Positions 481-58,264 are shown, numbered from the stretch's first letter. The stretch: DNA of 58,264 bases from Candidatus Kaiserbacteria bacterium RIFCSPLOWO2_01_FULL_51_21 (GCA_001781435.1 MFLV01000009.1:435-58698); one strand, 5' to 3'. Numbers and translations are program-made. The notes: generated from the letters alone by a model not told the origin.

Positions 481-1794
481 ATGGAAGAAAAAAACACCCT
501 ACAGGACATGGTGCCAAACGACCGCCGCTCTATTCGTCGGGTTGAAATTACTCCGCTTCGGCGCCCCCGTGATGTACGGGAACCGAGTCCCGCGATGCCG
601 CCTCCACCACCACCGAGGGTTCCTTCATTTGGGACAGAAAAGAAACGGAGATTCCCTGAGAAGAATCTGACTATTTGGATACTTGCTTCGGTGGTTGTCG
701 TGGGGCTCGGTTTTGCACTTTCCATTTTTTTTACAAAAACTACCATGGTGATAACCCTGAAAGAGTCTAGCCCAATTATTGATACTACTTTTGGAGCCCA
801 CAAAACTCCGGTTGCCGGGGAGCTTCCCTTTGAGGTCATAACCCTTGATAAGAACGGCTCGCTTGCTGTTCCGGCGACAGGCGAAGAAGAGGCGAACGTA
901 CGCGCCTCAGGGCAGATCATTATTTATAATAACTATGGCTCACAGGCACAACGCCTCGTACGTAATACCCGCTTTGAGTCAAGCGATAAAAGAATTTACC
1001 GAATTGATAAATCAGTCGTGGTGCCAGGTAAAACCGCAAGCGGTCCGGGAAGCCTTGAGGTCACCGTCTACGCTGACGAACCCGGTGAAAAATACAATGC
1101 GGATTTGATGGACTTCACTGTTCCCGGTTTTAAAGGAAGCCCTCAGTATGATAAGTTTTATGCTCGGTCAAAGACTCCTATGACGGGTGGATTCGTGGGA
1201 AAGAGGCTCACCGTTGATCCCGCGGCTCTTGAGAAAGCAAGGGAAACGATCCGTACTACGATAAAGGATGATCTTACTGCTTCTGCGGTAGCGCAAATAC
1301 CCGAGGATTTTGGATTGTTTGAAGGAGCTCTTTTTTTCGATTTTATCTCGCTTCCTCAAACTGATGCCGGTGGTACAGTTCAAATTCAAGAAAAAGGAGT
1401 TCTTCATGGGCTCTTATTTTCCAAAAGTGAGCTCGCTCGCGTCATTGCCGCAGCTTCTTCGGCCGCACCAGCAGAAGGGGTGCCTCTTTTCCTTGGTGAA
1501 GGCAGCTCGCTGACGTTCACCGTGGGTGCAGCAGACACCTATGCGCCATGGGAAAAAGAAAGCTTTTCTTTTACCTTGAAGGGCACCGCCAGGCTTGTCG
1601 CCAGCTTCAATGAGAACGCTCTGAAACAAGATCTCGCTGGAAAAACAAAATCAGCGCTTCCGACAGTACTCGCCGGCTATCCTGGTATCGATCATGCAGA
1701 GGTGGTTATGCGTCCCTTTTGGCGTCAGGAATTCCCAACCGATCCTCTGGACATAACTCTTTCAACGGCAGCCCAAGCCGAATTAAAGCAATAG
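481..1794 (+). CDS. hypothetical membrane-anchored protein with Pro-rich N-terminus
   Basis: 437-aa ORF with a PPPPPPRVP tract followed by one hydrophobic helix (ILASVVVVGLGFALSIFF). No family recognised. Confidence 0.6.
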   Translation: MEEKNTLQDMVPNDRRSIRRVEITPLRRPRDVREPSPAMPPPPPPRVPSFGTEKKRRFPEKNLTIWILASVVVVGLGFALSIFFTKTTMVITLKESSPIIDTTFGAHKTPVAGELPFEVITLDKNGSLAVPATGEEEANVRASGQIIIYNNYGSQAQRLVRNTRFESSDKRIYRIDKSVVVPGKTASGPGSLEVTVYADEPGEKYNADLMDFTVPGFKGSPQYDKFYARSKTPMTGGFVGKRLTVDPAALEKARETIRTTIKDDLTASAVAQIPEDFGLFEGALFFDFISLPQTDAGGTVQIQEKGVLHGLLFSKSELARVIAAASSAAPAEGVPLFLGEGSSLTFTVGAADTYAPWEKESFSFTLKGTARLVASFNENALKQDLAGKTKSALPTVLAGYPGIDHAEVVMRPFWRQEFPTDPLDITLSTAAQAELKQ

Positions 1795-6566: not shown

Positions 6567-7103
6567 ATGAGTGATTCCGAAGAGGAATTCATCCCGGAAG
6601 AGGAGGAAGAAAATCCTTCTTTAGCCGTCAAGAAACTCCGGGAGCGGCTGAAGAAATGCATTGAGGAGAAGCAAGAATATCTCGACGGCTGGCAGCGGAC
6701 AAAAGCGGATTTTGTGAATGCCCGCCGTGAAGAGGAGAAACGCCTAGCGGAGCTTTTGAAATTCGCCGAAGTGGCTCTGATTATGGACATTCTTCCGGTA
6801 CTCGACAGTTTTGACATGGCAATGAGTGATAAAGCGGCATGGGAGAGCGTTTCCAAAGAATGGCGCTCTGGCATGGAATCTATCGCCGCTCAGCTTGAAG
6901 GGGTGCTTAAAGAACATGGTGTTGGTCTCTTCAGCCCGCTTGGGGAGTCCTTTTCGCCGGTGGAACACGAAGCGATCGATACAATTGAAACGAGCGAGGA
7001 GGACAAGGACCATAAGGTTGCCGAAGTATTCCAGCGCGGTTATCGGTTGCAGGGGAAAGTGATTCGTCCGGCAAAGGTCAAAATTTTCAAATCTGTTTCT
7101 TAA
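6567..7103 (+). CDS. grpE: nucleotide exchange factor GrpE
   Basis: 178 aa: acidic N-terminus, a coiled-coil region, then a GrpE C-terminal beta domain. Sits immediately upstream of dnaK. Confidence 0.9.
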
Positions 7104-7121
7104 TTCGTACTTCGTAATTCA
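7101..7121. repeat. heptamer-repeat locus (three units)
   Basis: TAATTCGTACTTCGTAATTC starts in the grpE stop codon and ends 10 nt before the dnaK ATG. Confidence 0.7.
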
Positions 7122-30557: not shown

Positions 30558-31524
30558 AATCCATCAACAACTCCTGCTTGGTTTTTTTGCAATGCTTAGT
30601 GTCGGAGGCGCGTTTCTTTTTGCTCTCTCCATGCCGCGAGGAGAGACCCCACGGCAAGAAGCCACCGTAATCACCTCACTTCCGACCCCCGCTCCCGACC
30701 TCTTCAAAGACCTCTCGCTTGAGGCTAAGGCGGTTATCGTTATCGACTGGAGCCGTAACCAAGTGCTCTTTGAAAAAAACGCCAACGCGCAATTACCGCT
30801 TGCCTCGCTTTCGAAACTCATGACCGTGGTCGTTGCAGATGAGGTGCTTCCTAAAGGAAGTGCCGTCACTATCCGTCCTAAAGATGCAAAACAAAGCGAT
30901 AATGCGCCACTGCGAGCCGGAGAGCAGTGGCGCCTTAAAGACCTTCTTGATTTCACCCTGATTGGCTCTTCAAACAGCGGCGCTTCTGCACTTGCAAGCG
31001 AGGCTACCGCTGCGCTCCACGGAGAAACGGAAGAAAAGAATATACAACCCTCTTCAGTATTTCTCGAGCGGATGAACCAAAAAGCGGCAGAGCTTGGACT
31101 CTCGCAAACCTATTTCCTCAATGAAACCGGTCTCGATCAAAGCTCGGAGGTTCCCGGTAACAACGGTTCCGCCCGAGATATGGCGAAACTTCTCGGTTAC
31201 ATCATTACTAGCCGACCCGAATTGTTAGACGCGACCAGATATCCGGAATTCAGCGCCGTGACAGTCGGCAACACTCGCTACAGAGTACAGAACACCGATA
31301 CCGCCCTTGGCCACATTCCGGGACTTATCGGATCAAAAACGGGGCTTACTGATCTTGCGGGGGGCAATTTAGCCGTGGCATTTGACGCCGGCATTGAACA
31401 TCCAATCATTGTAGTGATCCTTGGCTCATCGCAGGAAGGGCGATTCGTTGATATTCAAAAGCTCGTGGACACCTCACTTTCCTGTCTTGCTCTAGGCTGT
31501 CGTAATAGTGTCTCAAATTTATGA
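30550..31524 (+). CDS. D-alanyl-D-alanine carboxypeptidase (S11 family)
   Basis: Signal anchor, then SLSK (SxxK), SSNSG (SxN) and KTGLT (KTG). ATG at 30550 overlaps the scpB stop; the track ORF from 30370 is an extension. Confidence 0.88.
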   Translation: MREIHQQLLLGFFAMLSVGGAFLFALSMPRGETPRQEATVITSLPTPAPDLFKDLSLEAKAVIVIDWSRNQVLFEKNANAQLPLASLSKLMTVVVADEVLPKGSAVTIRPKDAKQSDNAPLRAGEQWRLKDLLDFTLIGSSNSGASALASEATAALHGETEEKNIQPSSVFLERMNQKAAELGLSQTYFLNETGLDQSSEVPGNNGSARDMAKLLGYIITSRPELLDATRYPEFSAVTVGNTRYRVQNTDTALGHIPGLIGSKTGLTDLAGGNLAVAFDAGIEHPIIVVILGSSQEGRFVDIQKLVDTSLSCLALGCRNSVSNL

Positions 31525-31721
31525 TCCCGTTAGAGATTAGAAAAGTTGGTTTTAGTTTGAGAGACACTTACTGCATTTTCAAGAACATTCTCACGAACCT
31601 CAACATCATGAACGGAAACGCCTTCAACAGACAGCGCCAGGTCGAAAAGATTATTTTTCATGTTCAGATAAAAAAGTCCAGTAAGCAACGCATGCTGGGC
31701 GTTTCCTATCTCTAACGGGAT
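31521..31721 (+). repeat. CCCGTTAGA-arm palindromic junction element, copy 1 (long variant)
   Basis: Arms ATCCCGTTAGAGAT (31524-31537) / ATCTCTAACGGGAT (31708-31721). It contains track ORF 31521-31715 (64 aa), and ATGAT flanks both ends. Confidence 0.85.
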
Positions 31722-32790
31722 GATTATCGACGTCGTTAAAGTGATTCTTCCCGCAGCGCTTGCTTTTAGTATTGGTATGGCGATTACGCCGGCACTTACT
31801 CACTACCTCTACACGTACAAAGCCTGGAAGAAACAAGTTCGGAGCCGAGCTATTGATGGCAGGGAAGCCATCATCTTTAACGAATTACACAAAGAAAAAG
31901 AAATCGGAACTCCGCGTATGGGCGGAGTGGTTATTTGGCTCTCGGCAGCTTTCACAATCGTCGGAATCTGGCTTTTGGCCGAGCTTTTTCCCGGAAGCAT
32001 TTTCACAAAACTCGATTTTTTAAGTCGCAACCAAACCTGGATACCTTTTTTCACGCTCATTGCTGGTGCACTCGTCGGACTTATCGACGACTTATTCGAG
32101 GTTATGGGACGAGGCGGGTATATCGGCGGGGGACTTTCGCTTACGAAACGCCTTCTTGTCGTTGCTGGGATTGCTCTTTTCGTAGGATGGTGGTTCTACA
32201 GTAAACTTGAAATCACAACCATCGGGATGTTTTTTGGCGCAAGCGTGTCGGTTGGCATTTTTATTATTCCCATTTTTGTACTGGTCACGCTTGCACTCTA
32301 TGCAAGTGGCGTTATCGACGGCATTGACGGTCTTGCCGGGGGAGTATTCTCAACTATTTTTCTCGCTTATGCGGGCATCGCCTTTTATCAGGGACAAATA
32401 GATTTAGCCGCCTTTTGTGCGACGGTTGCCGGCGGCATATTGGCGTTTTTATGGTTCAATATTCCGCCGGCGCGCTTCTACATGTCAGAAACGGGGACCA
32501 TGGGACTCACCATAACGCTTGCGGTCGTCGCTTTTATGACCGACTCACTTGGAGAGGGGCACGGGCTCATTGTTCTCCCGATCGTCGCCTTCCTTCTCCT
32601 CATCACCGTTGCCTCGGTGCTTCTCCAGGTTATATCGAAAAGACTGCGTAAAGGGAAAAAGATATTCCGCATTGCGCCCCTCCACCATCATTTCGAAGCT
32701 ATCGGCTGGCCACCGTATAAAGTAACCATGCGTTTTTGGGTCCTCGGCATCATCTTCGGCCTCGTCGGCATGATTCTTGCCTTCCTTTAG
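31720..32790 (+). CDS. mraY: phospho-N-acetylmuramoyl-pentapeptide transferase
   Basis: 356-aa polytopic protein with GTPRMGGVVIW and the C-terminal APLHHHFE motif. Confidence 0.95.
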   Translation: MIIDVVKVILPAALAFSIGMAITPALTHYLYTYKAWKKQVRSRAIDGREAIIFNELHKEKEIGTPRMGGVVIWLSAAFTIVGIWLLAELFPGSIFTKLDFLSRNQTWIPFFTLIAGALVGLIDDLFEVMGRGGYIGGGLSLTKRLLVVAGIALFVGWWFYSKLEITTIGMFFGASVSVGIFIIPIFVLVTLALYASGVIDGIDGLAGGVFSTIFLAYAGIAFYQGQIDLAAFCATVAGGILAFLWFNIPPARFYMSETGTMGLTITLAVVAFMTDSLGEGHGLIVLPIVAFLLLITVASVLLQVISKRLRKGKKIFRIAPLHHHFEAIGWPPYKVTMRFWVLGIIFGLVGMILAFL

Positions 32791-32801
32791 CAACACGCGG
32801 C

Positions 32802-32923
32802 ATGAATCCCGTTAGAAATCACGGACAGGCTGGTACAATATGTTACTAAAGGTCAAATATATCAACAATAAACAAAAGAGCACGGCGCTTCGGAAAAAGT
32901 CCGTGCCCTATTTCTAACGGGAT
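32802..32923 (+). repeat. CCCGTTAGA-arm palindromic junction element, copy 2
   Basis: Arms ATCCCGTTAGAAAT (32806-32819) / ATTTCTAACGGGAT (32910-32923), extended by CACGGAC/GTCCGTG. Confidence 0.85.
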
Positions 32924-34019
32924 GAAAAGCCACAGCTTCGATCGCTCCATCTTTTTTTTGACGATACTTCTCGTGGTCGTGGGATTTTTTGTTTTCACTT
33001 CAGCTTCACTTGGGCTTCTCTCTCGTGTCGACGGAGCCCACTTCGCGCGCACCGCGTTCACTCAGGCGTTCCTCGGCATCGGACTGGGGTTTGTGGGACT
33101 ACTCACAGCCATAAACATCCGCTACCGCTTTTGGAGAAAATACGCTCTTCTTATTTTTATTGCAGCGCTTATTGCGACAAGTCTGGTCTTCGTACCAGGG
33201 CTCGGCTTCAGCTCCGGCGGCGCAACACGCTGGATTCATATCGGGCCCTTGTCGTGGCAGCCGGCTGAATTCCTGAAGCTTGCATTCGTCATCTACCTTG
33301 CGGCATGGCTTTCCGGGGCCCGCGGCAAAGTACAGCATTTTCGGTCCAGCATTATCCCGTTCCTCCTCATTACCGCTTTTACCGGCACCTTACTCCTCTT
33401 AGAGCCTGACACAGGGACTTTCATGGTCATCGTCACCGCCGGTCTTGCCATGCTTATTGCCGCCGGGGTGCGGTGGCGCGATATTGCGATTCTTGTGTGT
33501 GTGGTGCTTATCGGTCTTGCCGGACTTGCCGCTACGCGACCGTATATAAAAGACCGTATCGTAACGTTTATCGACCCGATGCATGACCCCCAAGGATCAA
33601 GCTACCAGCTTCAGCAATCACTTATTGCCGTCGGCTCAGGAGGGCTCCTCGGAAGGGGATTTGGACTCAGCGTTCAAAAGTTCAGTTATCTTCCGGAACC
33701 ATCGGGCGATTCGATTTTTGCGGTTGCTGCCGAAGAATTTGGATTTCTTGGAAGCATCACGCTCGTCGGCTTGTTCTTACTGCTGGGACTTCAGGGGCTC
33801 AAGGTGGCGGCGCGTGCACCTGATACATTCGGTGGACTCTTGGCCGTCGGGATTGTTATACTCATCGTATCCCAGTCATTTATCAACATCGCCTCCATGG
33901 TAGGGGTACTGCCGCTCACCGGCCTGCCGATGCTTTTTATAAGTCATGGGGGTACCGCAATGCTCTTTGGCCTTTTTGAAATTGGAATTTTGCTTAATAT
34001 TTCGAAATACCGAGCCTAA
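32922..34019 (+). CDS. ftsW: cell division / peptidoglycan polymerase FtsW (SEDS family)
   Basis: 365 aa, ten-TM SEDS pattern, between mraY and murG. Confidence 0.9.
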   Translation: MKSHSFDRSIFFLTILLVVVGFFVFTSASLGLLSRVDGAHFARTAFTQAFLGIGLGFVGLLTAINIRYRFWRKYALLIFIAALIATSLVFVPGLGFSSGGATRWIHIGPLSWQPAEFLKLAFVIYLAAWLSGARGKVQHFRSSIIPFLLITAFTGTLLLLEPDTGTFMVIVTAGLAMLIAAGVRWRDIAILVCVVLIGLAGLAATRPYIKDRIVTFIDPMHDPQGSSYQLQQSLIAVGSGGLLGRGFGLSVQKFSYLPEPSGDSIFAVAAEEFGFLGSITLVGLFLLLGLQGLKVAARAPDTFGGLLAVGIVILIVSQSFINIASMVGVLPLTGLPMLFISHGGTAMLFGLFEIGILLNISKYRA

Positions 34020-34029
34020 ATTGAAATAT

Positions 34030-34056
34030 GAATTACGAAGTACAAATTACGAATAA
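34030..34056. repeat. heptamer-repeat locus (complement orientation)
   Basis: GAATTACGAAGTACAAATTACGAATAA lies between the ftsW stop and element copy 3. Confidence 0.7.
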
Positions 34057-34061
34057 ATAGG

Positions 34062-34184
34062 ATGAATCCCGTTAGAAGTCGAGAACCCGCAACAACTTTC
34101 AATATGGCAATGGTCGAAAATATCCAACGTAGTTCGTGGGTAGGAATAAGCGCCAACAGGTGCGCGTCCTACTTCTAACGGGAT
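34062..34184 (+). repeat. CCCGTTAGA-arm palindromic junction element, copy 3
   Basis: Arms ATCCCGTTAGAAGT (34066-34079) / ACTTCTAACGGGAT (34171-34184). An open 38-codon frame spans 34062-34178. Confidence 0.85.
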
Positions 34185-35316
34185 GAAAATACTTTTTACC
34201 GGAGGAGGCACCGGGGGACATTTTTATCCAATCATCGCCGTTGCCGAGGAGGTGAATGCTCTCGTTGAAGAGCGGAAACTCTTGAGACCTTCGCTCTATT
34301 ACGCCGGGCCGACTCCCTTTGAAGAACGTCTGCTGTTTGAGAACGGCATTGAATTCCGGAAAAGTCCGGCTGGGAAGGTCCGCCGCTATTTTTCGCTTCT
34401 CAATATCACTGATGCGATTAAAACGGCTTTTGGCATTTTGAAGGCGCTTTTTCAAGTTTTCAGCATTTATCCGGACGTCGTTTTCAGCAAAGGCGGGTAC
34501 GCGAGTTTTCCGACGGTGCTCGCCGCGCGGCTATTTAAGATACCGCTTGTGATCCACGAATCAGACGCGACGCCGGGAAAAGTAAACCGTTTCGCAGGGA
34601 AATTTGCTGAACGGATTGCCATTGCGTATCCTGAAGCCGCAAGCTTTTTCCCAAAAGGGAAGACGGCGTTAGTCGGAAATCCTATCCGAAAGGCTCTGCG
34701 GACCGTTGCACGGGAAGGCGCCTACGAATTTTTGCGTCTTTCATCAGAGCTCCCCGTCATTGTGATACTCGGCGGCTCCCAAGGAGCGCAAAAACTCAAC
34801 GACGTGGTGCTCGGCGCCTTACCGGAACTCGTTGAGCGTTATCAAATTATTCACCAGACGGGCGATGCTTTATTTCAAGATGTAGAGAGAACTGCTCGCG
34901 TGGTGCTCGAAAAAAGCCAGAATGGCAGCCGGTACAAAGTATTTCCCTATCTGAATGAACTGGCGCTCCGCATGTCGGCGGGCGTTGCGACCGTCATCGT
35001 TTCCCGTGCAGGATCAGGAGCCATTTTTGAGATTGCACAGTGGGGAATTCCGAGCATTATCGTCCCACTGCCTGAACTTGTCTCACACGACCAAACAAAA
35101 AACGCCTTTACCTACGCGCGTTCTGGAGCTGCGGTCGTTATTGAGCAAGACAATCTCACGGCACACCTTTTGGTATCCGAGATCACCCGCCTCATTGATA
35201 ACCCGAATATCCGAGAAAAAATGAAGGCAGGAGCAGCGTCATTCGCCAAGCCCAAAGCGGCGCGGGAGGTTGCGGAAGCAATCCTTGATATTGCGCTTAA
35301 ACATGAATCCCGTTAG
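34183..35316 (+). CDS. murG: UDP-N-acetylglucosamine--N-acetylmuramyl-(pentapeptide) pyrophosphoryl-undecaprenol N-acetylglucosamine transferase (lipid II synthase)
   Basis: MKILFTGGGTGGHFYPIIAV. The stop TAG (35314-35316) lies inside the left arm of element copy 4. Confidence 0.95.
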   Translation: MKILFTGGGTGGHFYPIIAVAEEVNALVEERKLLRPSLYYAGPTPFEERLLFENGIEFRKSPAGKVRRYFSLLNITDAIKTAFGILKALFQVFSIYPDVVFSKGGYASFPTVLAARLFKIPLVIHESDATPGKVNRFAGKFAERIAIAYPEAASFFPKGKTALVGNPIRKALRTVAREGAYEFLRLSSELPVIVILGGSQGAQKLNDVVLGALPELVERYQIIHQTGDALFQDVERTARVVLEKSQNGSRYKVFPYLNELALRMSAGVATVIVSRAGSGAIFEIAQWGIPSIIVPLPELVSHDQTKNAFTYARSGAAVVIEQDNLTAHLLVSEITRLIDNPNIREKMKAGAASFAKPKAAREVAEAILDIALKHESR

Positions 35317-35425
35317 AGGTCGCGAACCCGCAACCACTGATGCTATGATTAAGGTCGAATATTTTGAAATTAACGTTGTAGTTAAATCGCACTCCACTGG
35401 GTGCGCGTTCTACCTCTAACGGGAT
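35303..35425 (+). repeat. CCCGTTAGA-arm palindromic junction element, copy 4
   Basis: Arms ATCCCGTTAGAGGT (35307-35320) / ACCTCTAACGGGAT (35412-35425). An open 38-codon frame spans 35303-35419. Confidence 0.85.
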
Positions 35426-36821
35426 GAAGCTACTTGAGGAGCTTGAGCAATTGTTTGTGACACCCGCCTTAGCCACAAATAGAAAAGTGGTGGTGCGTAC
35501 TGCGCCTTCACCAACCGGCAATCTCCACATAGGAACCGCGCGCTTAGCGCTTTTCAATTACCTTTTCGCACGCAAACACGGGGGGAAGATCATTTTGCGC
35601 ATTGAGGATACCGATACCACCCGCTCAAAAAAAGAGTTTGAGGACGATATTCTTGAAAGCCTACGCTGGCTCAGTCTCTCTCATGACGAGTTCTACCGCC
35701 AATCTGAACGGGGAAGCGTCTACCAAAAACATCTTCTGCGTCTCATTAAGGAAAAGAAAGCGTATCTTTCGCGCGAACCATCGCAGAGTAATCCGGCGGT
35801 GGAGATTGAGGTCGTCCGGCTACGAAACCAAAACAGGATAATCTCATTTGAGGACGAAATTCGTGGAACCATTTCGTTTGATACGATGGAGCTCGGTGAT
35901 TTTGTAATCGCACGCTCGCTTTCCGACGCCCTGTACCATTTCGCCGTTGTGGTTGATGACGTCGAGATGGGAGTAACCCATGTGATTCGGGGCGATGATC
36001 ATATCTCGAATACGCCGCGGCATATCCTCATACAGGAAGCGCTTGGCGCCCCGCGCCCCGTCTACGCGCACATCCCTCTTGTTCTCGCACCTGACCACTC
36101 AAAATTATCTAAACGCCATGGCGCAACAGCAATTCGGGAATATCGCGAGCAAGGATTTTTGCCCGAGGCGCTTATAAACTATCTCGCTCTGCTCGGCTGG
36201 AACCCCGGCACGACTCAAGAATTATTCACTCTTTCCGAACTCATAAAAGAGTTCGACTTGAGTCAGGTGCATAAAAGCGGAGCAATATTCGACATTGAAA
36301 AACTCCGGTGGTTCAATCGGGAATACCTCCGCCGCCTCCCGCCGGCGGAAGCTCTTGCCCTGATAGGGAACGCCCTGCCGGAGGCTATCAAGGCCTTGCC
36401 TCACTTTTCAGAAGAGCGTCTGCAAAAAGTAGCCCCGCTTCTTATTGAGCGCATTGCGGTTTTTTCCGATATTGCGAAGCTTGTCAAGGAGGAAGAGCTC
36501 CAGTATTTTTTTGAACGTCCCGCCGTTGCTCCGGAAGATCTTGCGTGGAAAGATACAAATGCCGCGACGATCGCCGAGCATTTACAATACCTCTGTGAAA
36601 AACTGGGAGATATCCCTGAGAAAATGTTCACTCAAGATACCGTAAGGGAAGCGATTTTCGGATATGCGACCGAAAAGGGAAGGGGAGCGGTGCTCTGGCC
36701 CATGCGCTATGCCCTCTCAGGGAAAAAACAATCACCCGACCCCTTTGTGCTCTCCGGTATCTTTGGAAAAGAAGAAACCATTGCCCGCCTCACCGCCGCC
36801 TCTGCTACAATAGCGAAATGA
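35424..36821 (+). CDS. gltX: glutamyl-tRNA synthetase
   Basis: PSPTGNLHIGTARLAL (HIGH-type) and KLSKRHG. Confidence 0.95.
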   Translation: MKLLEELEQLFVTPALATNRKVVVRTAPSPTGNLHIGTARLALFNYLFARKHGGKIILRIEDTDTTRSKKEFEDDILESLRWLSLSHDEFYRQSERGSVYQKHLLRLIKEKKAYLSREPSQSNPAVEIEVVRLRNQNRIISFEDEIRGTISFDTMELGDFVIARSLSDALYHFAVVVDDVEMGVTHVIRGDDHISNTPRHILIQEALGAPRPVYAHIPLVLAPDHSKLSKRHGATAIREYREQGFLPEALINYLALLGWNPGTTQELFTLSELIKEFDLSQVHKSGAIFDIEKLRWFNREYLRRLPPAEALALIGNALPEAIKALPHFSEERLQKVAPLLIERIAVFSDIAKLVKEEELQYFFERPAVAPEDLAWKDTNAATIAEHLQYLCEKLGDIPEKMFTQDTVREAIFGYATEKGRGAVLWPMRYALSGKKQSPDPFVLSGIFGKEETIARLTAASATIAK

Positions 36822-38104
36822 AATCTTGGGTACTCGCAGTAGCACTTGCGCTATTCGCACTCGGCCTCTTTACCGTGCCTGCGGCCGCCGCCGCTACTGC
36901 AGACGAACTGCGGAGTAAAATAGCGGAAAAAAATGACGCTATTCTTAATCTCGAAAAAGAAATTAAGGAATACCAGAGACAACTAGAAACCACCGGTAAA
37001 GAAAAACAAAGTCTCCAGAACGCCGTTGCATTGCTTGACCTTTCACGCAAGAAAATCAGCGCGGATATACGCATTACCGAGAACAAGATAGCGGCAACCG
37101 ACCTTCATCTTTCCGAGCTTTCACTTCAAATCACTGACAAGGAGACGCGCATTGCTCTTTCTCTCTCTGCGGTGGGAGCAGGACTTCGGACTCTTGCGAT
37201 CATGGATGCCGACGCACCCATAGTTTATATCCTTCGGGGAGAAAATATGAGTGAGGCGTGGCAGCAACTTGAAGAACTCGACCGTTTTCAGCAATCAATC
37301 GATAAACACGTTGAGGACCTCCGACAGTTCAAGGAAGATCTTGAGAATACAAAAGCTCAGACCGAGATGGCGCGGAAAAAATTAGTCAGCCTCAAAATCG
37401 AACTGGCAAATCAAAAAAAAGTGCTTGATGCCAACCGACAGGAAACAAGCGCGCTTCTCGCCGCGACAAAAAACAAAGAGTCTAATTATCAAAAGCTTCT
37501 TGCAGAAAAACAGACGCTTCACCGGCAGTTTGAAGAGGAACTTTCCGCCTATGAGGCCGAGCTTCGTTTTACCATTGACCCGACGCTTCTTCCAAAAACC
37601 GGCTCGGGCGTCCTTTCCTGGCCGCTTGACGCCGTCTTTATCACTCAATATTTCGGCAATACCGAATTCGCAACAAGAAATGCGCAGGTCTATAATGGGG
37701 AAGGGCACAACGGAATCGATCTGCGCGCGGCACCTGGGACGCAGGTAAGGGCCGCCTCCTCCGGCGTAGTGCAAGGCACCGGCAACACCGACACTACCTG
37801 CCGAGGCGCTTCCTACGGGCAATGGGTTCTTATCCGGCATAACAACGGGCTTTCAACCCTCTACGCGCATTTATCGGTCATCGCTGTTTCGCAAGGACAA
37901 TCAGTTTCAGTGGGGCAAATCATCGGATACAGCGGATCGACCGGATACGCGACCGGCCCCCACCTTCATTTCACGGTGTATGCAACGCAAGGAGTGGAAA
38001 TTTCACAACTCAAAAGCCGCGCGCTTGCCTGTAAAGGAAAAATTTATACGCTACCCCTTGTCAAGGATCGCGGAGCCTATTTAAATCCGCTATCGTACCT
38101 TTAA
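36818..38104 (+). CDS. M23-family peptidoglycan endopeptidase with a coiled-coil N-terminal domain (EnvC-like)
   Basis: Signal peptide and a long heptad-rich region, then GHNGIDLRA and GSTGYATGPHLHFTVY. The start overlaps the gltX stop (ATGA). Confidence 0.88.
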   Translation: MKSWVLAVALALFALGLFTVPAAAAATADELRSKIAEKNDAILNLEKEIKEYQRQLETTGKEKQSLQNAVALLDLSRKKISADIRITENKIAATDLHLSELSLQITDKETRIALSLSAVGAGLRTLAIMDADAPIVYILRGENMSEAWQQLEELDRFQQSIDKHVEDLRQFKEDLENTKAQTEMARKKLVSLKIELANQKKVLDANRQETSALLAATKNKESNYQKLLAEKQTLHRQFEEELSAYEAELRFTIDPTLLPKTGSGVLSWPLDAVFITQYFGNTEFATRNAQVYNGEGHNGIDLRAAPGTQVRAASSGVVQGTGNTDTTCRGASYGQWVLIRHNNGLSTLYAHLSVIAVSQGQSVSVGQIIGYSGSTGYATGPHLHFTVYATQGVEISQLKSRALACKGKIYTLPLVKDRGAYLNPLSYL

Positions 38105-45706: not shown

Positions 45707-45816
45707 GAGTACGAATTACGAAGTACGAGTTACGAAGTACGAGTTACGAAGTACGAGAAAATTGAAGAGTGCCAAGTTCATGATTCGTAATTCTTAATTC
45801 GTTATTCGTAATTCGG
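45707..45816. repeat. heptamer-repeat locus with facing arms
   Basis: Seven AKTACGA units (45707-45757), a 25-nt spacer, then ATTCGTAATTCTTAATTCGTTATTCGTAATTCGG (45783-45816). The right arm encodes the last residues of the glycosyltransferase. Confidence 0.85.
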
Positions 45817-47715: not shown

Positions 47716-47748
47716 ATTCGTAATTCTTAATTCGTACTTCGTAATTCG
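47716..47748. repeat. heptamer-repeat locus
   Basis: ATTCGTAATTCTTAATTCGTACTTCGTAATTCG, identical to 49504-49536. Confidence 0.85.
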
Positions 47749-48206: not shown

Positions 48207-48235
48207 ATTCGTACTTCGTAACTCGTACTTCGTAC
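48207..48235. repeat. heptamer-repeat locus
   Basis: ATTCGTACTTCGTAACTCGTACTTCGTAC ends 4 nt before the rpmA ATG. Confidence 0.75.
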
Positions 48236-49503: not shown

Positions 49504-49568
49504 ATTCGTAATTCTTAATTCGTACTTCGTAATTCGACTCCTAATTCCTGCTTCCTTATTCCTGATTC
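49504..49568. repeat. heptamer-repeat locus with a degenerate tail
   Basis: A 33-nt core identical to 47716-47748, then ACTCCTAATTCCTGCTTCCTTATTCCTGATTC, which runs into the 3' end of the protease gene. Confidence 0.85.
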
Positions 49569-50820: not shown

Positions 50821-50975
50821 CCCCGTTAGAAGTAGGTCGTTCAGACTCTGATGAGTCTTCAGACTCGATGAGGCGCGTGCGTTAGAAAATGCCCTATCGA
50901 AATCAAACCCGCACTTGCGAGAATAATTTTAGTATTCCCCAAATGACACTGTGTCGCCCGCGACTTCTAACGGGG
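50821..50975 (-). repeat. CCCGTTAGA-arm palindromic element, copy 5 (diverged, between divergent genes)
   Basis: Arms CCCCGTTAGAAGT (50821-50833) / ACTTCTAACGGGG (50963-50975). The arm-adjacent sequence matches copies 3 and 4 when read on the minus strand. Confidence 0.75.
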
Positions 50976-50982
50976 CAACCCC

Positions 50983-50988
50983 TATAAT
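50983..50988 (+). promoter_or_regulatory. -10 box (TATAAT) 6 nt upstream of the corA-like ATG
   Basis: A perfect TATAAT. No clear -35; that region is occupied by the right arm of element copy 5. Confidence 0.45.
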
Positions 50989-50994
50989 GAAAGT

Positions 50995-51912: not shown

Positions 51913-51942
51913 CGAATTACGAATTAAGAAGTACGAATTACG
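51913..51942. repeat. heptamer-repeat locus (complement orientation)
   Basis: CGAATTACGAATTAAGAAGTACGAATTACG ends 3 nt before the cysS GTG. Confidence 0.8.
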
Positions 51943-54966: not shown

Positions 54967-54998
54967 ATTCTTAATTCGTAATTCGTACTTCTTAATTC
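54967..54998. repeat. heptamer-repeat locus
   Basis: ATTCTTAATTCGTAATTCGTACTTCTTAATTC. It shares a 22-nt string with the reverse complement of 51913-51942. Confidence 0.8.
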
Positions 54999-58153: not shown

Positions 58154-58264
58154 GCGCAGCGTTCTTTTATACCATTCCCTGGTCTAATTCGTACGAATGG
58201 TACGTACAACAATGGCGGGGAGGTTAAGATTTTGGAAGATAGGGGTTTAAAAGGTTTTTTGTTA

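Follow-up and report, generated by a model that had tools for sequence, protein, structure and literature searches.

The window considered here, the whole stretch of 58,264 nucleotides from Candidatus Kaiserbacteria bacterium RIFCSPLOWO2_01_FULL_51_21 (GCA_001781435.1 MFLV01000009.1:435-58698), carries the genes dac (Peptidase_S11), mraY, ftsW, murG and gltX, together with an M23 peptidase gene, all of them on the + strand and with identities confirmed by Pfam. Four copies of a short palindromic element are found in this operon, at the starts of mraY, ftsW, murG and gltX, and a fifth, variant copy lies between divergent genes elsewhere in the window (Table 1). These palindromes are insertions with target duplication and members of a large family. 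Moreover, we consider it probable, at roughly 0.8, that they are decayed copies, resembling miniature inverted-repeat transposable elements (MITEs), of a small GIY-YIG nuclease cassette of 278-279 bp, which would insert at ATGRR and be tolerated by means of start-codon regeneration and termination-reinitiation.

Palindromic copies in the cell-wall operon

Each of the four operon copies is bounded by perfect inverted arms of 13-14 nt (TCCCGTTAGAnnT ... AnnTCTAACGGGA), and the terminal A of each, together with the direct repeat that follows (TGA in copy 1, TGAA in copies 2-4), constitutes the ATG of mraY, ftsW, murG or gltX. The five copies described in the initial annotation do exist, its coordinates, in which the upstream ATG(A)A was included, being correct to within 1 nt. 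It had taken every operon copy to open with ATGA(A) and to close on the start codon of the next gene: the last A is indeed that of the host ATG, whereas the flanking ATGA(A)...TGA(A) corresponds to a target-site duplication of 3-4 bp, which lies outside the element. The fifth copy is located directly 5' of the TATAAT of a leaderless corA gene; its end is 12 nt from this box, the copy occupying the would-be -35 position (50821-50994), and the divergent partner is an S41 peptidase gene.

With the 10-mer arm TCCCGTTAGA, at no more than one mismatch, 11 matches were obtained in the window versus 3.2 expected, 8 of the 11 being exact arms, and a relaxed inverted-repeat scan of the window did not find a sixth copy. 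The copies fold as long hairpins (-37 to -46 kcal/mol, z from -3.8 to -5.7), the opposite strand folding equally strongly. In copy 2 the helix is extended by CACGGAC/GTCCGTG, and copy 1 retains an ACGGAAACGCC...GGCGTTTCCTA helix as well as the remnant AGGTCGAAAAGATTATT (A-R-S-R-E). Features typical of MITEs are present in the window copies, namely small size (116-196 nt), open reading frames (ORFs) without family match, terminal inverted repeats, a target duplication of 3-4 bp and multiplicity (five copies). The variable dinucleotide of the arms reads GA, AA, AG or GG, one per operon copy; it is not claimed as a device against cross-pairing between copies, the chance of obtaining four different dinucleotides being about 5-10% given the family frequencies.

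A second, unrelated repeat family is also found in the window: in at least nine intergenic regions there are runs of a motif with a period of 8 nt (TACGAAKT / GTACGAAT, on one strand or the other), and one of the runs sits in the spacer just 5' of copy 3.

Table 1. Positions of the palindromic copies, their reading frames and other repeats and sites; window coordinates unless a locus is given
Feature	Position	Strand	Description
Copy 1	31525..31720	+	196 nt, at mraY start; least-deleted derivative; flanks TGA 31522-31524 and TGA 31721-31723, a 3-bp duplication
Copy 2	32807..32922	+	116 nt, at ftsW start; flanks TGAA 32803-32806 and 32923-32926, a 4-bp duplication
Copy 3	34067..34183	+	117 nt, at murG start; flanks TGAA 34063-34066 and 34184-34187
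Copy 4	35308..35424	+	117 nt, at gltX start; flanks TGAA 35304-35307 and 35425-35428
Copy 5	50821..50975	+	155 nt variant, ends CCCC/GGGG versus TCCC/GGGA; flanks CAA/CAA; start codon absent at site
Relay ORF, copy 1	31521..31715	+	64 codons, MIPLEI...GVSYL and stop; ATG overlaps dac stop (ATGA); TAA 4 nt before mraY ATG 31720
Short ORF, copy 2	32802..32849	+	15 codons, MNPVRNHGQAGTICY and stop; early stop 73 nt before ftsW ATG 32922
Relay ORF, copy 3	34062..34178	+	38 codons, MNPVR...CASYF and stop; TAA 4 nt before murG ATG 34183
Relay ORF, copy 4	35303..35419	+	38 codons, MNPVR...CAFYL and stop; TAA 4 nt before gltX ATG 35424
Unoccupied candidate target	36818..36822	+	ATGAA at gltX/M23 overlap; fits family target consensus ATGRR
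9-bp inverted repeat	L201:1595-1610 and 1755-1775		origin of second helix in miniature copies
8-nt motif runs	7103-7116, 34034-34054, 45710-45751, 47716-47743, 48207-48234, 49504-49531, 51918-51938, 54974-54987, 58187-58198		periodic motif, second repeat family

A family of insertions at start codons

The extent of the family was established by scanning an exact two-arm pattern over one genome per species, which gave at least 120 loci from at least 109 assemblies; the family counts that follow rest on the matches listed in that scan, with denominators (81, 86, 109, 128 and 130) that vary by test. The hosts include many lineages of the ultra-small Patescibacteria (Saccharibacteria, Paceibacterota/Parcubacteria, and Doudna-, Kerfeld- and Kazan-type lineages), as well as Omnitrophota and Planctomycetota; in the viral contigs scanned with the arm pattern, zero matches were obtained. 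Identical 4-nt flanks were found in 91 of the 128 elements with enough flanking sequence, and the rebuilt target is A-T-G-R-R, these bases being present at 79, 81, 81, 74 and 79 of 81 sites, respectively. Rarer duplications (CTTA, AAAA and CTAA) are seen in few copies, and it is these that fix the length of the duplication at 4 bp. The junction between gltX and the M23 gene, which had been regarded as an unoccupied version of the same site, does match this consensus.

Among 130 elements, 109 have a terminal A that, with the TG behind it, begins an ORF of 50 aa or more, on either strand, and the upstream ATG is still present in 96 of the 109. The downstream ORFs are ordinary genes, matching 149 Pfam families; thus, the tie to stop/start junctions of a cell-wall operon, as first described, gives way to an association with start codons generally. 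Furthermore, variants ending in C/G rather than T/A are also inserted at ATGRR, the host start then being GTG, and since these variants share the target, the choice of ATGRR is a property of insertion and not of survival alone. At the two variable positions of the arms, 211 of 218 pairs are Watson-Crick over 109 members, with eight dinucleotide types, so that the compensatory changes observed earlier among the window copies are real and can be extended to the family. The orientation with respect to the host gene was read from the subterminal YCCT marker, local alignment of the MITE interiors to the full-length element being uninformative: 56 copies are oriented as the nuclease ORF described below and 5 are opposite, a bias that points either to directional integration or to strand-specific selection. 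Sub-families sharing deletions are also visible.

Several host genes have been hit repeatedly. In distant genomes, and by different sub-types, copies are found at secG four times (L042, L044, L064, L084) and at pheT four times (L051, L074, L096, L103), a hibernation factor was hit three times (L053, L094, L115), and the dcw cluster carries copies in L086, L137, L172 and the window. Such repeat use of the same genes exceeds uniform choice among ~900 genes. The secG copies of L044 and L084, in which the first ATG has decayed, resemble one old insertion inherited by two species.

Empty sites and nesting have been decisive in establishing how the copies arrived. Eighty metagenomic loci orthologous to the ftsW region of the window (45-75% protein identity) were fetched, and any copy at all is present in 2 of them, of differing sub-types, the other 78 having plain short junctions. 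In the carrier L172, four copies lie within 9 kb; L166, its nearest relative, with 77% nucleotide identity, can be aligned as far as each copy, and there the four sites are empty, as in ATGCG-E-TGCGTAT (filled, E being the element) versus ATGCGTAT (empty) or, in a wider comparison, ...AATCAATGCGTATTC... in L166 versus ...ACAATGCG-element-TGCGTATCT... in L172. Moreover, a 32-nt minimal element lies within another in L040, and in L057 an element has been inserted in the right arm of another. L010 carries a tandem array, E1-TGAA-E2-TGAA-E3. The 78 plain junctions, the empty sites of L166 and the nesting rule out a conserved operon device and establish a mobile element. The initial annotation had admitted a selfish insertion as one of its readings, and this one is borne out by the target duplications, the empty sites, the nested and tandem insertions, the longer nuclease-bearing version and the presence of the element in more than 100 genomes. 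As to the L010 array (L010:5898-6200), its middle element has other arms (TCCCGTAGTAG... / ...CACTACGGGA), and hence sister families with other arms exist.

The GIY-YIG cassette and its deletion derivatives

By tracing unpaired arms, long copies were exposed in L061 and L012, in which the arms enclose an ORF of ~84 aa with GIY-YIG motifs; this longer relative, the termini of which are identical to those of the miniature copies, encodes a GIY-YIG nuclease, a putative transposase. A protein search gave 374 relatives, and the best 120 of the 374 share 80-100% identity, have lengths of 83-92 aa and fall in PF01541, the full-length copies carrying the motifs YTY..YTG..R..E. These best 120 homologues all end in [AVT]S[YC][LF] followed by a stop, which is the right arm translated (TCC TAY YTC TAA), and fifteen longer homologues start with M-x-P-V-R-D (one with MVPLEI), which corresponds to the captured ATG plus the left arm.

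In seven independent genomic contexts, the unit measures 278-279 bp; it starts with TCCCGTTAGAGAT (CCCCGTTAGAGAT in L061) and ends with ATCTCTAACGGGA, except in L220, where one A is inserted in the arm, and in L061, which ends in ...GGGG. A TGGA, TGAA or TGAAA duplication at the ATG is seen in 5 of the 7 contexts, and between the nuclease stop and the host ATG stands CGGG (ACGGG in L220), giving TAA-CGGG-ATG. The host genes are TraG/VirD4-like, typA, a racemase, 6-phosphogluconate dehydrogenase, VirB4-like and others. No more than one protein can be accommodated in the full-length unit, and its gene is physically joined to both arms. Comparison of eight full-length copies gives a dN/dS of 0.07-0.25 at dS 0.34-1.15, with unchanged arms, which places both the protein and the arms under selection; judged by these rates, the nuclease is under purifying selection and would be functional, its catalytic activity being predicted.

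The nearest solved structures are 1ZG2 (BH0048; E = 1e-9) and 1YWL (EF2693; E = 1e-5), both of UPF0213, a type which a phylogenomic study describes as the minimal, stand-alone bacterial branch of the Slx1 family (PMC1564403). Within the nuclease ORF, a perfect 9-bp inverted repeat, with halves separated by ~170 nt (GGAAGCGCC for L-R-K-R-L and GGCGCTTCC for L-G-A-S), is kept in all full-length copies. Distant GIY-YIG ORFs, ~38-44% identical to the arm-bearing family, were also found between duplicated 5' halves of tRNA genes at L003:4400-4760 (-) and L010:2150-2560 (-), the copy of L003 having in addition a TCCCGATG..CATCGGGA hairpin; these suggest a broader cassette habit, consisting of insertion at the 5' end of a gene and rebuilding downstream.

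Alignment with the full-length elements reveals what has been kept in the window copies: the arms, a subterminal GGCG(C/T)TTCCTA, equivalent to the codons L-G-A-S-Y, and the 'core' AGGTCGA(R)A..ATTAT, equivalent to A-R-S-R-E-L, the motif with the conserved Glu of the GIY-YIG domain. Copy 1 additionally keeps ACGGAAACGCC, which encodes L-R-K-R-L. Of the features pointed out initially, the 'pyrimidine bulge' YCCT and the 'GGTCGAAA core' are thus present, but as codon remnants of the GIY-YIG gene (..L-G-A-S-Y.. and A-R-S-R-E) according to the alignment; the extended helix is present too, and its origin is the 9-bp inverted repeat inside the nuclease gene. Two types of deletion occur in the family, in which either the 5' third of the gene plus a local hairpin or, as in the window, the 3' part is kept. 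The ORFs of the window copies have no Pfam or NCBIfam match, the GIY-YIG domain having been lost. The alignment thereby identifies the window copies as internally deleted, MITE-like, non-autonomous derivatives of the GIY-YIG cassette.

The fusion of gene and arms also bears on whether the palindromes could be ordinary MITEs of a DDE-type insertion sequence, the GIY-YIG ORF being a passenger or an independent homing-endonuclease gene that shares the sites. Terminal inverted repeats with a target duplication of 3-5 bp are the classical DDE signature, and no GIY-YIG transposase is known to us. However, the unit of 278-279 bp fits the nuclease ORF only, with the ORF running into both arms, the best 120 of the 374 homologues all end in the right arm, and the arm-bearing gene is under purifying selection. 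Besides, in the ~1.7 Mb of fetched loci there is no longer element with these termini and no genuine unpaired arm, the lone or long-range arms being mostly decayed partners of short copies. A DDE origin is therefore regarded as unlikely.

Host-gene expression, mobilisation and known systems

Insertion takes place at 5'-ATGRR-3', nearly always the start codon of a gene, with duplication of TGRR. The last base of the element being an A, the ATG and the first bases of codon 2 are rebuilt downstream, and the host coding sequence remains untouched because the terminal A and the duplication restore its ATG. In the mechanism proposed, the original upstream ATG, with the promoter and initiation context of the host, would open the element's own frame, which in full-length copies, from the captured ATG or from an internal ATG ~8 codons later, would be the nuclease. 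This frame would close at the right-arm TAA (TAA-CGGG-ATG) or at an ATGA overlap, and a ribosome coming from the first ATG would unwind the left arm, so freeing the buried host ATG for re-initiation on the host gene. A stop 4 nt upstream of a start is the classic layout of termination-reinitiation. With relay frames between the genes, the dac, mraY, ftsW, murG and gltX cistrons would be chained via short relay ORFs, and re-initiation would be the route of host-gene expression.

The 'translational-coupling relay' that the initial annotation had suggested finds support as a means of tolerance, since an ORF leads from the duplicated ATG to the right-arm TAA in copies 1, 3 and 4 (Table 1); the N-terminus of the copy 1 relay, MIPLEI, resembles the MVPLEI of the full-length nuclease P0106. 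Among the miniature copies of the family, 29 of 86 have a frame that is open from the first ATG as far as the right-arm TAA or an ATGA overlap, versus 11.6 +/- 3.1 (maximum 22) in dinucleotide-preserving shuffles and 5 of 86 in frame +1, and the relay architecture is seen in every full-length element examined. Upstream genes are also affected by the insertions. Through that of copy 4, the 14-nt overlap between murG and gltX has been lost and the murG stop is now a TAG from the left arm of the copy (35314-35316), its C-terminus having changed from ..HEAT to ..HESR before the stop (35296-35316); silent edits of upstream genes at other operon-internal insertions are likely.

Regarding initiation at the first ATG, a TATAAT-like box lies 6-7 nt before it in 31 of 86 upstream flanks, versus 6.6% expected, and a Shine-Dalgarno-like motif in 9. 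The scarcity of Shine-Dalgarno sites and the presence of TATAAT-like boxes indicate that the first ATG keeps its native, often leaderless, initiation context. The genome of the window appears to be largely without Shine-Dalgarno sites, and TATAAT/TACAAT-like boxes are found 7-8 nt before many of its ATGs, such as the TACAAT that precedes the M23 gene and lies within the 3' end of gltX (36800-36822) and the TATAAT before corA; on sequence grounds, this points to leaderless mRNAs being widespread in it.

The element would owe its mobility to the GIY-YIG nuclease, which may cut the cruciform or hairpin of the arms. Eukaryotic Slx1 is a structure-specific nuclease, which makes cutting by a minimal Slx1-like enzyme at the base of an extruded palindrome a reasonable mechanism. 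Mismatches at the variable positions of the arms amount to 5 G-U versus 2 A-C, too few to decide, and those of the second helix to 12 versus 16 in an ungapped and crude analysis with register errors; arms without G-U tolerance would fit selection on a DNA hairpin or cruciform over RNA.

Several observations weigh against the reading of the palindromes as decayed copies of such a cassette. An intact GIY-YIG gene was not found in the 58-kb window, so that mobilisation in trans is not visible there, and the interior likeness of copies 2-4 to the parent consists of short motifs only, local alignment scores being blind to orientation. To our knowledge, no GIY-YIG nuclease has been described as a transposase. 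Each exact nuclease protein was found in one genomic context only, and hence no very recent jump was caught. The four consecutive hits in the operon are more clustered than random choice among the ~14 ATGRR starts of the window would give, and the copies are dissimilar; local hopping is a possibility. As for translation, an early stop occurs in the relay frame of 57 of 86 copies, which implies that re-initiation at the arm TAA is not the sole route to host expression. Finally, some old insertions (secG in L044/L084; L220; L240) combine a decayed first ATG with perfect arms, in a search whose pattern itself demanded perfect arms, and in these the hairpin could have acquired a host-level role.

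The latter observation also fits a host-selected structured RNA, which would act as an RNase III-type processing site or as a start-codon-sequestering switch tuning each cell-wall cistron. Strong hairpins, well above shuffles, arm pairing with compensatory variation, a last paired base that is the A of the host ATG and a strong orientation bias relative to the gene are in its favour, as are the arms kept in some old insertions despite the decayed first ATG. Against it stand the 78 of 80 orthologous operons that carry no copy, the hypervariable interior, the opposite strand that folds equally well, the lack of G-U preference among arm mismatches and the target duplications and empty sites, which indicate arrival by insertion. 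Furthermore, an Rfam scan of the whole window at the gathering threshold was empty, as was a scan of 31400-35600 with E allowed up to 10. The RNA device dedicated to the operon that had been put forward initially does not hold up against these results, and structured RNA as the origin of the palindromes is quite unlikely; an RNA role as a secondary, acquired function is possible. A hammerhead-like ribozyme, considered because copies 4 and 5 contain the strings CTGATGA and GAAA, was rejected, the interior being unconserved across the family and without Rfam match.

It is very improbable that the copies are genuine small genes, encoding peptides of 38-64 aa (MNPVR...SYF/SYL) translationally coupled between the cell-wall genes. 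Copies 1, 3 and 4 are crossed by open ORFs, and open ORFs are enriched in the family, but the peptides share arm-dictated residues only, the frame of copy 2 ends after 15 codons, no Pfam or NCBIfam match is obtained and the copies align with the nuclease gene as what deletion has left of it. Also very improbable is an integron-like cassette, or one moved by other site-specific recombination, in which the palindrome would be attC-like: the arms hold GTTAGA / TCTAAC, akin to the attC core GTTRRRY / RYYYAAC, and the full-length unit combines an ORF that lacks a promoter with a palindromic site, but the polarity of the core boxes is reversed (GTTAGA 5', TCTAAC 3') with respect to 5'-RYYYAAC ... 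GTTRRRY-3', the duplication varies with the target (TGAA, TGGA, TGCG and others), which implies staggered cutting and not a fixed crossover core, and no integrase or cassette array was found near the copies.

Taking the reading as a decayed GIY-YIG cassette further, we advance a tentative proposal, to which somewhat less than even odds are given: the cassette may be a new class of prokaryotic transposon that encodes a single protein, a GIY-YIG nuclease of minimal Slx1-like type, whose substrate would be the cruciform or hairpin of the element's own arms. Insertion would be directional and at start codons, the nuclease would be expressed from the promoter and initiation site of the host, the host gene would be re-initiated from a rebuilt ATG 4 nt past the nuclease stop, and the window copies would be the MITEs of this transposon.

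Among known systems, Correia/NEMIS (Neisseria), RUP, ERIC and Nezha likewise consist of short non-coding sequences in multiple copies, bounded by terminal inverted repeats and flanked by a target duplication, and they are also co-transcribed with adjacent genes as hairpins and derived by internal deletion from a longer element. In contrast with these bacterial MITEs, the parent here is a 278-bp unit with a minimal GIY-YIG gene only, and not a DDE insertion sequence; the target is a start codon, ATGRR, rebuilt by the terminal A of the element, the orientation bias is strong, and the family extends over different phyla, with few copies in each genome. Free-standing genes for GIY-YIG homing endonucleases, such as Seg of phage T4 ('intronless homing'), are also small selfish genes between host genes, reliant on host expression signals and leaving the host gene intact. 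However, homing endonucleases have extra DNA-binding domains, lack inverted repeats and target duplication and are copied to the same allelic site by repair, whereas here a bare catalytic domain (83-92 aa) is associated with inverted repeats and a target of ~5 nt at the starts of dozens of unrelated genes.

The minimal single-domain architecture of the cassette nuclease is shared by the UPF0213/bacterial Slx1-family proteins 1ZG2 and 1YWL, for which we know of no reported function or mobile context. Eukaryotic Slx1, for its part, acts with Slx4. The Rickettsia palindromic elements are likewise mobile palindromes within expression units that spare the host product, but their insertion is in frame within genes, and the protein comes to include them, whereas the elements described here duplicate the start of the host ORF and so are kept out of it. 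Finally, eukaryotic introners offer an analogy of principle, in that insertion plus target duplication recreates a neutralising signal (splice sites in their case, a start codon and a stop in this one), although domain of life, machinery and level of neutralisation (splicing versus translation re-initiation) are different.

Although the outline, a MITE together with a selfish nuclease gene, is familiar, no earlier description of the combination was found in a limited literature check, in which there was no paper linking GIY-YIG with transposition and nothing relevant on UPF0213/COG2827; as far as checked, the initial impression of novelty is upheld. What would be new is that the element targets start codons and regenerates the ATG, that its own gene captures the initiation site of the host, that a stop for re-initiation is built in and that the cargo is limited to a minimal GIY-YIG nuclease.

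The element would thus achieve harmlessness by another route: it is not spliced out, as introns and inteins are, nor does it hide between genes, but captures the start codon, has its own nuclease expressed from host signals and hands the ribosome back to the host gene. If it is the GIY-YIG nuclease that mobilises the element, a nuclease class would be added to the transposase chemistries of prokaryotes and a role would be provided for the widespread, function-less UPF0213/minimal Slx1-like proteins. As regards the annotation of Candidate Phyla Radiation (CPR)/Patescibacteria genomes, duplicated ATGs, spurious ORFs of 15-64 aa and altered C-termini, such as that of murG, stem from these insertions. 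Moreover, the element may be usable as a natural probe of leaderless initiation and termination-reinitiation in unculturable organisms.

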